DNA of 64,000 bases from an uncultured Armatimonadetes bacterium (GCA_963717145.1 OY970325.1:1664001-1728000); one strand, 5' to 3'. Counted from the first letter of the stretch, positions 34,313 through 36,885 are shown. Translations and numbers: made by a program. Notes: generated from the sequence alone by a model not told the origin.

Positions 34313-35059
34313 ATGCCCGCCGGCCGAAATCCCAACCGCACATCCGGTTTCACCATCATCGAATTGCTGGTGGTCATCGCCGTTATTGCCATACTGTCAG
34401 GCATTCTGCTCCCAATATTCCTCTCTGCCAAGGAATCTGTCCGTAACTCGCAATGCCAGGCGAACCTCAAGCAACTCTACGTCGCATTCGAGCTGTATGC
34501 CGACAATTGGAATGGCGTCTGGCCTGGCCCCGGCGGATACAAGGGCGACAACTGCTACTGGGCACAGGAGAGCGGAGGGGGCGTGGATGCGTACCTCAAG
34601 AACCAGGAGAAGGGCGGAGAGAGCGTCTTCTGCTGCCCATGCTACACAGGCGTATATGCCTCGCCATGGTCGCCACGGACCTATGGCATGAACTCGTTCC
34701 TGCGGACGATGCGGAAAACTTATTCTTACCCACAGTATCTGAAGTTCCCGGGGATCAGAGAGACTAGCATCCTGTACCCAGGCCGCACGATCCTGCTCTA
34801 TGAAGGCATGCCCGAGGATAAGACGAATACCAACGGCGAGGGATATGTGTATCGCTGCGGTGACTGGACACTGGTGCGAGGATATACCAAGTATAAGCAC
34901 TACCAGAAGTCAGATAGGCCCTGGCATCGCGGGCGGAACAACTACCTCTTCTGTGATGGACACATCGAATCACGTGTGCCGGAGGAATCTGGCGCCGAGT
35001 TGACCTCGCCGGACAATGACCTTTGGACCGTTCGTAAGGACAGATACCCTATGAGGTAA
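34313..35059 (+). CDS. Prepilin-type N-methylation protein with C-terminal H-X9-DG motif
   Basis: [17 protein letters not shown]...[21 protein letters not shown]. Confidence 0.94.
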
Positions 35060-35623: not shown

Positions 35624-36007
35624 CTACTCGAGATCTATCACCAGTTCGGGCAGTGAGCAGAGAGTCGCGTGGATGAGGCAACTGCCGGCAACCTTCTTGA
35701 CCGCCTGCCGACGGTTCTCGGGGATGCCCTTCGGCACTTTGACTTTGGCATGCAGGCGCCCGATCCGCATGGGGTCCTTCACGATATCCGAGGCGACATC
35801 GACCGTCATCCCCTCGCAGTCGATCCCGGCCTGTTCGCAGTACGCGGTCACGTACACGCCGATGCACGTCCCGAGCGAGGCCGCAAGAAGCTCGGGGGGC
35901 GTCATTGCCGTATCAGTGCCGCCCTTCTCAGGTGGCAGATCGGTCGTGATCTTGTGTCCGCGTGTCTCGGCGGTGAACTTGGTCCCGCCTTCGTAGGAAA
36001 TCTTCAT
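35624..36007 (-). CDS. OsmC/Ohr family protein
   Basis: GGTDTAMTPPELLAASLGTC ... CLIHATL. Confidence 0.92.
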   Translation of the reverse strand: MKISYEGGTKFTAETRGHKITTDLPPEKGGTDTAMTPPELLAASLGTCIGVYVTAYCEQAGIDCEGMTVDVASDIVKDPMRIGRLHAKVKVPKGIPENRRQAVKKVAGSCLIHATLCSLPELVIDLE

Positions 36008-36024: not shown

Positions 36025-36134
36025 TGGAGTGCGGAAGCGGAGTCTCCTAGATCCTGAATCAAGTTCAGGATGACAACGGGCGCTGTCATCCTGAACTTGA
36101 TTCAGGATCTAGGAGACTCCGCTTCCGCACTCCA
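36025..36134. repeat. Perfect 51-bp-arm composite palindrome
   Basis: Outer TGGAGTGCGGAAGCGGAGTC arms (related to 46315) enclosing AGATCCTGAATCAAGTTCAGGATGACA arms; 8-nt loop. Confidence 0.93.
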
Positions 36135-36136
36135 TA

Positions 36137-36301
36137 TCAACCGGCCCGATCCAGGGCCAGCAGCAATCCGATGACGGCGCCGATTACGACGCTGACATAC
36201 GGATTGCAGACGAGCTTTCACCCGCCGCCCATCGATCGGCTGAGAAGGCTGAGCAGATAGCCCAACGCTCCGCCGATGACGATTCCCATTGCCATTTTCA
36301 T
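36137..36301 (-). CDS. Small two-TM protein (DUF6132-like) with in-frame TGA; candidate selenoprotein
   Basis: RBS GGAGTGAG; MKMAMGIVIGGALGYLLSLLSRSMGGG[TGA 36220-36218]KLVCNPYVSVVIGAVIGLLLALDRAG*; both halves are TM-like; not in the ORF track. Confidence 0.75.
36163..36207 (-). promoter_or_regulatory. Candidate bacterial SECIS hairpin
   Basis: mRNA GCAAUCCG/CGGAUUGC lower stem and GCGUC/GGCGC upper stem; apical GUAAUC begins 30 nt after the UGA. Confidence 0.55.
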
Positions 36302-36316
36302 ATACTCACTCCGTAA

Positions 36317-36353
36317 GAAAGCCGATGACCACCGGCTCATTGTCGGGGCTTTC
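36317..36353 (-). promoter_or_regulatory. Hairpin after the FmdB TGA: candidate SECIS or weak terminator
   Basis: GAAAGCC...AUGAGC-CGGUG-GUCAU...GGCUUUC; GGU-containing loop about 17 nt after the UGA. Confidence 0.45.
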
Positions 36354-36534
36354 ACCCGCTTGGCTTGCATCCGGCTTCGATGTACGCGCGAAGGGCTGCA
36401 AACGTCGACATCAGCCTATTTGTCTCCTTCGACCCGCATTTCGGACACTCCTTCACGTCCTTCGATTCGCTCAGCGGTTCCAGAATCGAGAACTTGTGTC
36501 CGCAGCTACTGCATTTGAACTCATGTATGGGCAT
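36352..36534 (-). CDS. FmdB family zinc-ribbon protein; possible Sec read-through to 36337
   Basis: MPIHEFKCSSCG...CPKCGS...RLMSTF; ends GCKPSG-TGA. Confidence 0.9.
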   Translation of the reverse strand: MPIHEFKCSSCGHKFSILEPLSESKDVKECPKCGSKETNRLMSTFAALRAYIEAGCKPSG

Positions 36535-36549
36535 GTGATTCACCTCTTG

Positions 36550-36810
36550 TCATGCAAGCTTGAGGAAGAGCTTCATCGCATCTTCCAGGGATTCTTCTTT
36601 ACCCGCTTTCTGTTCGAGGCATTCCGCCATGTGGCGGCTCAACATGAGAAAGCCAACTCGGTCGAGCGCGCCCCTGACGGCGGAGACCTGAGTGATGATC
36701 TCGGTGCAGTCGGACTGATCCTCGACCATCCGCTGGAGGCCGCGCACCTGCCCCTCGATCCTCCGCAGCCTGTTCAGAAGCTCCCGACACGTCTCGGATC
36801 TATCCTGCAT
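36550..36810 (-). CDS. csoR: CsoR/RcnR family metal- or sulfur-sensing repressor
   Basis: NRLRRIEGQVRGLQRM, DCTEIITQ, HMAEC (Cys-His-Cys ligand pattern). Confidence 0.9.
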   Translation of the reverse strand: MQDRSETCRELLNRLRRIEGQVRGLQRMVEDQSDCTEIITQVSAVRGALDRVGFLMLSRHMAECLEQKAGKEESLEDAMKLFLKLA

Positions 36811-36830
36811 CGTGTCACCTCGCAACGATT

Positions 36831-36856: not shown

Positions 36857-36885
36857 ATTGTACTCGAGCATAGCCCGCCTGTCAA
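36857..36885 (-). promoter_or_regulatory. Sigma70 promoter of the csoR operon
   Basis: TTGACA(36885-36880)-N17-TACAAT(36862-36857). Confidence 0.8.

Follow-up and report, generated by a model that had tools for sequence, protein, structure and literature searches.

Within a 64,000-nucleotide stretch of DNA from an uncultured Armatimonadetes bacterium (GCA_963717145.1, OY970325.1:1664001-1728000; here called the window), an open reading frame on the minus strand, running from 36301 to 36137, very probably encodes a 54-residue selenoprotein, predicted to be the selenocysteine (Sec) form of the small two-helix membrane proteins of the DUF6132 family. The sequence-only reading of this DNA had put forward such a candidate, and the interpretation is supported by the family match of the product, by the Sec machinery of the genome, by the column that the in-frame TGA occupies among homologues and by the association of TGA forms with selA. 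The system itself is of a well-known kind; its size and the location of the Sec residue are unusual. The features of the gene are as follows (evidence in brackets).

36137..36301, minus strand: ORF of the predicted selenoprotein, 54 codons plus stop (translation; DUF6132 match; homologues conserved on both sides of the TGA)
36309..36312, minus strand: ribosome-binding site GGAG, 7 nt before the ATG at 36301 (read directly)
36218..36220, minus strand: in-frame TGA, the predicted Sec28 codon, codon 28 (translation; same column in 68 homologues)
36206..36208, minus strand: TGC codon of Cys32, the likely partner of Sec28 (translation; C32 invariant in the 13 closest homologues)
36163..36207, minus strand: SECIS-like hairpin with an 8-bp base helix, an inner stem and the apical loop (G)UAAU(C) (fold energy, covariation)
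36137..36139, minus strand: terminal stop, also TGA (no comparable hairpin behind it; a palindromic repeat follows directly)

The read-through product, its family and the Sec machinery

Read on the minus strand from the ATG at 36301, the ORF translates as MKMAMGIVIGGALGYLLSLLSRSMGGG-[TGA]-KLVCNPYVSVVIGAVIGLLLALDRAG-[TGA]; an ORF listing under table 11 gives only a 50-residue ORF that ends at the first TGA. Homologues begin with M-K at an equivalent ATG and have purine-rich stretches in front of it. AlphaFold2 modelling based on 56 relatives (mean pLDDT 65.6, i.e. moderate) predicts two helices, at residues 2-23 and 34-53, joined by a loop of the form GGG-U-KLV-C-N-P, which carries Sec28-x3-Cys32-Asn-Pro and is modelled with the lowest confidence (pLDDT about 54). 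The helical hairpin presents glycine-zipper faces, formed by G6/G10/G14 and G41/G45. The earlier description of a 54-residue ORF with a good ribosome-binding site, two transmembrane segments and an in-frame TGA agrees with the GGAG motif, the translation and the predicted helices.

When the TGA is read as Cys, the product matches the Pfam family DUF6132 (PF19628) at 25.5-26.2 bits (cut-off 23.2), and the match spans the TGA, with residues 1-51 aligned to positions 6-56 of the 60-position profile. When the TGA is left as a stop, the score in the genome search falls to 20.6 bits, below the cut-off. Matches to DUF6132 at E <= 0.01 were also obtained for 27 of the 56 aligned relatives, and the AlphaFold2 model, at its moderate confidence, displays the two helices and the Cys-loop-N-P arrangement of this family. 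Canonical Cys members carry the motif G-C-x-[ST]-G-x-C-P-[LI]-T-S-N-P, the second, conserved Cys of which aligns with the TGA. The motif had previously been given as G-x-C-P-[LI]-T-x-N-P, with the TGA at the conserved Cys and a resulting U-x3-C pair, and the alignment to Cys homologues bears this out. The Cys forms of DUF6132 resemble the window protein in length and in their helix-loop-helix architecture, and their invariant Cys stands in the column that would hold Sec in the window protein; they differ from it in their usual upstream Cys (C-x4-C), which is absent from the window protein and replaced by a Cys four residues downstream. A natural Cys homologue, used as a protein-atlas query, returned DUF6132 clusters only. 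The window protein has no thioredoxin-family Pfam match, and its model is a plain helical hairpin, not a thioredoxin fold.

The read-through protein was used to search 61 related genomes, and a profile was then used to search 401 genomes of the same phylum. The former search gave 14 strong matches, 12 of them with exactly one in-frame TGA and two without. In the latter, 68/401 genomes carry a homologue: 57 genomes, from about 30 genera, have TGA forms (one also with a TAG) and 11 have Cys forms without a stop. The TGA or Cys codon falls in one and the same column, G-[GST]-[U/C], in all 68 homologues, and in the 56-sequence alignment (A3) no column other than this U/C column and Gly10 is invariant. 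The 57 TGA and 11 Cys forms thus provide what the sequence-only reading had named as a check on its proposal, namely Cys and TGA homologues conserved on both sides of the codon. The partner Cys shifts among subfamilies (U-x3-C-N-P, U-x2-C, C-x2-U and C-x4-U), U-x3-C-N-P being the form of the window protein and of most families.

Beyond the Sec codon, three of the 57 TGA forms seem disrupted (loci L037, L078 and L088, in genomes G025, G065 and G366, respectively). They stop early or shift frame within helix 2, and may be decaying copies or assembly errors.

The selA gene is present in 218/401 genomes. According to a hand cross-tabulation, whose counts come from related genomes and hence do not represent independent events, it occurs in 54 of the 57 TGA carriers versus 1 of the 11 Cys carriers. 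Two TGA carriers that lack selA (G127 and G268) have a clear tRNA-Sec (72.9 and 80.2 bits), and one TGA carrier, G292 (92% complete), has neither selA nor tRNA-Sec above the cut-off. The association of TGA forms with selA recurs in several families; within genus g18, two TGA forms reside in selA-positive genomes and two Cys forms in selA-negative ones.

The genome of the window's organism (one contig, 5.37 Mb) contains all four of the genes selA, selB, selC and selD, the presence of which had been proposed as a further check. The tRNA-Sec (70.6 bits; identified by ARAGORN as tRNA-SeC with anticodon TCA) is encoded at C1:1086615-1086707, and selA (567 bits; C1:1084344-1085705) lies about 900 bases upstream of it. 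The selB gene scores 383 bits, and selD, located outside the window (G000:C1:4140327-4141253), scores 392.5 bits and contains one in-frame TGA, so that SelD would itself be a selenoprotein in this organism.

For a comparison between strains we used contigs (X1 and X3) of a relative with approximately 94-95% identity, which originate from soil metagenomes of two studies. Nine differences are listed within the ORF, eight of them at third codon positions; one listed difference lies after the TGA, at 36185 in the apical loop. The base at the TGA, which the sequence-only reading had wanted verified, shows no change at 36218-36220 among the differences listed (25 of 26 for X1 and 21 of 29 for X3), and the TGA is likely unchanged in this relative.

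With the single protein as a query, no homologue was found in the protein collection, and a pattern search of genome contigs produced 600 pattern matches, none of which was confirmed by tblastn, probably because the stop splits the short match.

The hairpin downstream of the UGA

The RNA that starts with the UGA forms a single long hairpin (dG -31.3 kcal/mol, z -4.26; none of 200 shuffled sequences was as good), which begins 13 nt after the U of the UGA and spans +13 to +57, its first bases being the last two bases of the Cys32 codon. In the base helix, GCAAUCCG (36207..36200) pairs with CGGAUUGC (36170..36163). The apical loop of the minimum-energy fold is UAAU, closed by a G-C pair; with this pair open, the loop is GUAAUC and starts 30 nt after the UGA. 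A long hairpin with an 8-bp base and a G-containing apical loop had been claimed: the hairpin and its base are as described, but the G in the loop depends on one pair, since the loop gains it only if the closing G-C opens. The bSECIS model calls for a G in the first apical-loop positions, at a distance of 16-37 nt from the UGA. A loose scan with SECIS criteria accepted 50/57 Sec forms, 11/11 Cys forms and often shuffled sequences too, and therefore provided no discrimination.

An RNAalifold consensus of 35 Sec forms keeps the base helix, and 89.6% of the cells of the full 8-bp helix are paired in this set. In the variable pairs 18:54 and 21:51 both partners are third codon positions, those of Asn/Lys33 and Gly45 in the former and of Pro34 and residue 44 in the latter. 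Both pairs show compensatory changes: CG 19, UA 5, UG 3 and GC 2 at 18:54, and GC 18, CG 7, UG 3, GU 2 and UA 1 at 21:51. The covariation score of 0.237, versus 0.119 in shuffles, was reached by none of 500 of these, and slid controls were all lower. For the 63 nt that follow the codon, the folding z averages -1.86 in the 57 Sec forms and -0.40 in the 11 Cys forms, the corresponding values of an upstream control being -0.80 and -0.06. The inner stem, when imposed on the 35 relatives, is 68% paired and is not kept in register across subgroups; only the base helix counts as the conserved part of the hairpin. Part of this helix follows from the conserved residues C-N-P and G-L-L, and the two closest Cys forms still have most of it.

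Two Sec subfamilies have short conserved hairpins of their own, 18-20 nt after the UGA and unlike the long one of the window. In f13 (L086, L087, L089, L095, L097, L101, L102 and L105) the hairpin is CCGGC-GGU-GCCGG, over the codons P-A-V-P, and in f32 (L090, L094, L098, L103, L104, L106 and L107) it is AGCCCC-GUN-GGGGCU, over the codons S-P-V-G-A. The Cys forms of family f19 (L074, L079, L081, L091 and L096), none of whose six genomes has selA, also keep a short G+C-rich hairpin, CGCCC-UGG(C)-GGGCG, which covers the codons S-P-W-R-A about 18 nt after the Cys codon. It may be a fossil SECIS element, or merely a consequence of the encoded residues.

If the standard bacterial pathway operates here, SelA and SelD would make the Sec charge on the tRNA, and SelB carrying Sec-tRNA(Sec) would bind the mRNA hairpin at 36207..36163. 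The UGA at codon 28 would then be decoded as Sec, and translation would continue for 26 codons to the second TGA, which has no such hairpin behind it. Bacterial selenoprotein genes of the fdhF type share with the window gene the in-frame UGA with Cys in homologues, the presence of SelA/SelB/SelC/SelD, and an intragenic hairpin that starts some 11-13 nt past the UGA and has its apical loop at a distance of about 30 nt. Unlike those genes, the window gene has an mRNA in which the putative SECIS element also encodes a transmembrane helix, so that the bases of the helix double as C-N-P and G-L-L codons, and owing to its shortness only 8 codons separate the end of the hairpin from the stop.

Genomic neighbourhood, possible function and competing readings

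The following features surround the gene.

36857..36885, minus strand: promoter-like site TTGACA-17-TACAAT, 11/12, before the repressor gene (consensus match only)
36550..36825, minus strand: CsoR/RcnR-family metal-sensitive repressor, first gene of the operon (PF02583, 98.4 bits)
36352..36543, minus strand: FmdB-type CxxC...CxxC zinc-ribbon gene, 63 aa (Pfam Zn_ribbon_8, TIGR02605)
36025..36134, no strand assigned: palindromic repeat with 54-nt arms, 98% complementary (possible transcript end)
35624..36007, minus strand: OsmC-like gene (Cys form), downstream, a recurrent neighbour (PF02566)

The row thus runs from the promoter-like site through the CsoR-type repressor and the FmdB zinc ribbon to the predicted selenoprotein gene, which fills the gap between the FmdB-type gene and the palindrome; the same placement, between an FmdB-like gene and a REP element, had been read from the sequence. 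The best solved relatives of the repressor are InrS (5fmn) and CsoR (4m1p), to whose Cys and His-x3-Cys its own residues align, and a relative with Asn in place of the His scores lower. This Cys...His-x3-Cys fingerprint is one that we take to mark Cu(I) sensors.

The palindrome, whose arms are 2 nt apart, stands directly after the stop codon and before the OsmC-like gene. It is a copy of a dispersed repeat family, parts of which are found at about twenty further sites of the genome (48 match rows, on both strands). The contigs of the soil relative (~95% identical) break or diverge at the palindrome, and its insertion may therefore be strain-specific. Beyond the repeat element lie the OsmC-like gene and then a DUF302 gene. 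Still further, on the opposite strand, the protein encoded at 34313-35059 has a prepilin-type methylation motif at its N-terminus and gives a weak DUF1559-like match; it appears unrelated to the operon. The FmdB zinc-ribbon and OsmC-like families both have Sec-containing members (PMC13188914). The FmdB and OsmC-like proteins of the window are plain Cys forms, the latter scoring 31 bits against the 'OsmC-related (seleno)protein' model (cut-off 95).

Same-strand neighbours were counted in 67 related loci. A thioredoxin gene adjoins the homologue in 23 of these (in 15 it immediately precedes a Sec form, in 7 it closely follows a Cys form, and in 1 it is further away), an FmdB-like gene lies upstream in nine, and a CsoR-like gene in five; OsmC-like neighbours occur in six loci and DUF302 neighbours in three. 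Moreover, in 7 of the 23 database representatives fetched an N-terminus of the DUF6132 type is fused to a thioredoxin domain that has a CxxC site, and thioredoxin models match the one such fusion that was checked. The Cys forms of family f19 lie in open frames of 202-232 residues, with thioredoxin fused or directly following. No thioredoxin gene is adjacent to the ORF in the window, and the neighbours of distant subfamilies (PGK, radical SAM, ClpB-like, GNAT and HypA) show no common theme.

The thioredoxin neighbours and fusions favour a redox centre coupled to thioredoxin. Judging from this gene linkage, the Sec/Cys pair could plausibly form a selenol/thiol redox centre anchored in the membrane, with a selenylsulfide in its cycle and thioredoxin as the protein that services it. 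In the window's organism it would be expressed from a CsoR-type, metal- or thiol-stress-responsive operon together with the FmdB zinc-ribbon protein. Since the membrane would separate the loop of a two-helix hairpin from a C-terminal thioredoxin, direct reduction in cis is geometrically doubtful.

We consider it unlikely, if a serious alternative, that the product is a real selenoprotein concerned not with thiol redox but with binding or moving Cu(I), Ag, Hg or perhaps Ni, by means of a Sec/Cys chelate in an oligomeric glycine-zipper bundle that would be induced on release of the CsoR-type repressor. The spacing C-x3-C is that of Cu-binding sites in Sco and CuA proteins, the operon's CsoR/InrS-like repressor keeps the Cys...His-x3-Cys of solved Cu and Ni sensors, and the upstream FmdB protein is a four-Cys zinc ribbon; but a partner Cys that moves among subfamilies is no less compatible with a resolving Cys than with a fixed chelate. 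The CsoR-like gene found upstream in 5/67 loci also speaks for a metal-related role, whereas linkage to thioredoxin (23/67 loci plus the fusions) is far commoner. Metal transporters and chaperones are represented among accepted selenoproteins, by MerT-like, CopZ-like, P-type ATPase and SO_0444 proteins (PMC13188914), yet no metal transporter or chaperone gene is adjacent in the loci inspected.

Readings that dispense with Sec are less probable by far. It is very unlikely that the first TGA is a true stop, which would yield a 27-residue one-helix peptide and leave the sequence behind it to be kept as an RNA element or a separate peptide. Gene callers do yield exactly such products, as database entries of 27 and 28 residues (P0062 and P0110) end precisely at the TGA. 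However, the 26 codons after the TGA stay in frame and align with the latter half of the DUF6132 profile; a separate ORF would lack both a start codon and a ribosome-binding site there; the Cys-codon homologues are single continuous ORFs; and the TGA forms track selA. In the 35 aligned Sec forms, the variation at the three codon positions is 0.92/0.66/1.42 bits after the TGA and 1.20/1.03/1.62 bits before it. This pattern is the signature of a coding frame behind the TGA, and the part after the TGA is more conserved than the part before it.

Highly improbable, too, is the decoding of the TGA as Trp, Gly or Cys by a deviant code or near-cognate read-through. Its one trace is a W in the Sec column of two full-length database proteins (P0004 and P0007), apparently a translation under another code. 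Against it, selA and selB of the window's genome have no internal TGA, table 11 leaves ordinary ORFs of the window uninterrupted and these match Pfam families, the ORF itself terminates with TGA, and TGA forms are almost confined to genomes with Sec machinery. Hardly credible at all is a DUF6132 gene decaying after a TGY-to-TGA nonsense mutation, as the three of 57 TGA forms that look broken further downstream might suggest, for this would need the same codon to have been hit in each of 57 genomes, which span about 30 genera, while the sequence on either side stayed under purifying selection, and the listed ORF differences of the soil relative lie mostly at third positions (8/9), with one after the TGA.

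Known selenoproteins and the place of the DUF6132 family

Several selenoproteins, i.e. the MerT-like (C/SxxU), YeeE/YedE and SO_0444 proteins, share with the predicted Sec form of DUF6132 a Sec residue in or near membrane segments with a Cys nearby (PMC13188914); by the NCBIfam selenoprotein models the window protein has no sequence relation to them, and it is much smaller and has two helices only. Its resemblance to the CcdA/DsbD relays is one of working principle only: Cys (here Sec/Cys) is placed by Pro at the ends of membrane helices, and in both cases there is genetic coupling to thioredoxin. Proteins of the CcdA/DsbD type consist of at least six helices, two of which bear a single Cys each, whereas the window protein has two helices with both redox residues in one loop, and would therefore need to oligomerise.

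A broader and more speculative reading, which we rate as improbable, is that these ~55-residue proteins are phylum-wide minimal membrane selenoproteins, forming glycine-zipper oligomers with a thioredoxin-driven Sec/Cys relay, and that the hairpins of the Cys forms are fossil SECIS elements. Each subunit would contribute one Sec/Cys pair to a relay across or within the membrane, the assembly acting either as a functional counterpart of CcdA/DsbD built on two helices or as a selenol-lined channel for species of sulfur, selenium or soft metals. The Cys-form hairpins in lineages devoid of Sec would then record repeated Sec-to-Cys conversion.

The selenoprotein models of NCBIfam release 20 (June 2026) gave no match in 11 members of the family (the window protein and ten diverse relatives), nor did a canonical Cys form match any of them. 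Against NCBIfam, the window protein yielded only chance-level MscL/TcpD matches, and the ten relatives one unrelated match below threshold. A review of the prokaryotic selenoproteome from May 2026 presents 119 families and subfamilies with domain identifiers (PMC13188914), and PF19628, DUF6132 and a U-x3-C entry are absent from its Table 1. In full-text literature, 'DUF6132' occurs only in one irrelevant paper and 'PF19628' in none, and those passages of the deep-Sep, BSepDB and Olavius symbiont papers that match term searches contain nothing similar. A 56-sequence profile run against a collection of 5.8 billion proteins gave 36 matches, all Cys forms, which are named 'hypothetical' or 'DUF6132' and in no case selenoprotein. 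We could not find this putative selenoprotein family in the searchable inventories; supplements such as the BSepDB family list lay outside the search and might name it otherwise.

Small membrane proteins and selenoproteins are each a blind spot of annotation, and the ORF described here belongs to both. Databases contain it solely as stubs of 27-28 residues or as mistranslated entries. If the prediction is true, it adds a new family to the prokaryotic selenoproteome, and one that is common in its phylum, as the TGA carriers make up 57 of the 401 genomes sampled and about a quarter of the selA-positive ones. Few selenoproteins would be shorter than its members, whose Sec would sit in the loop that joins two membrane helices. 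The ORF would also offer a compact natural case of one mRNA stretch in which a SECIS element and the codons of a transmembrane helix coincide. Finally, the fusions to thioredoxin, together with a Sec/Cys column that never varies and a partner Cys that shifts its position, would provide the first testable functional hypothesis for the orphan family DUF6132.
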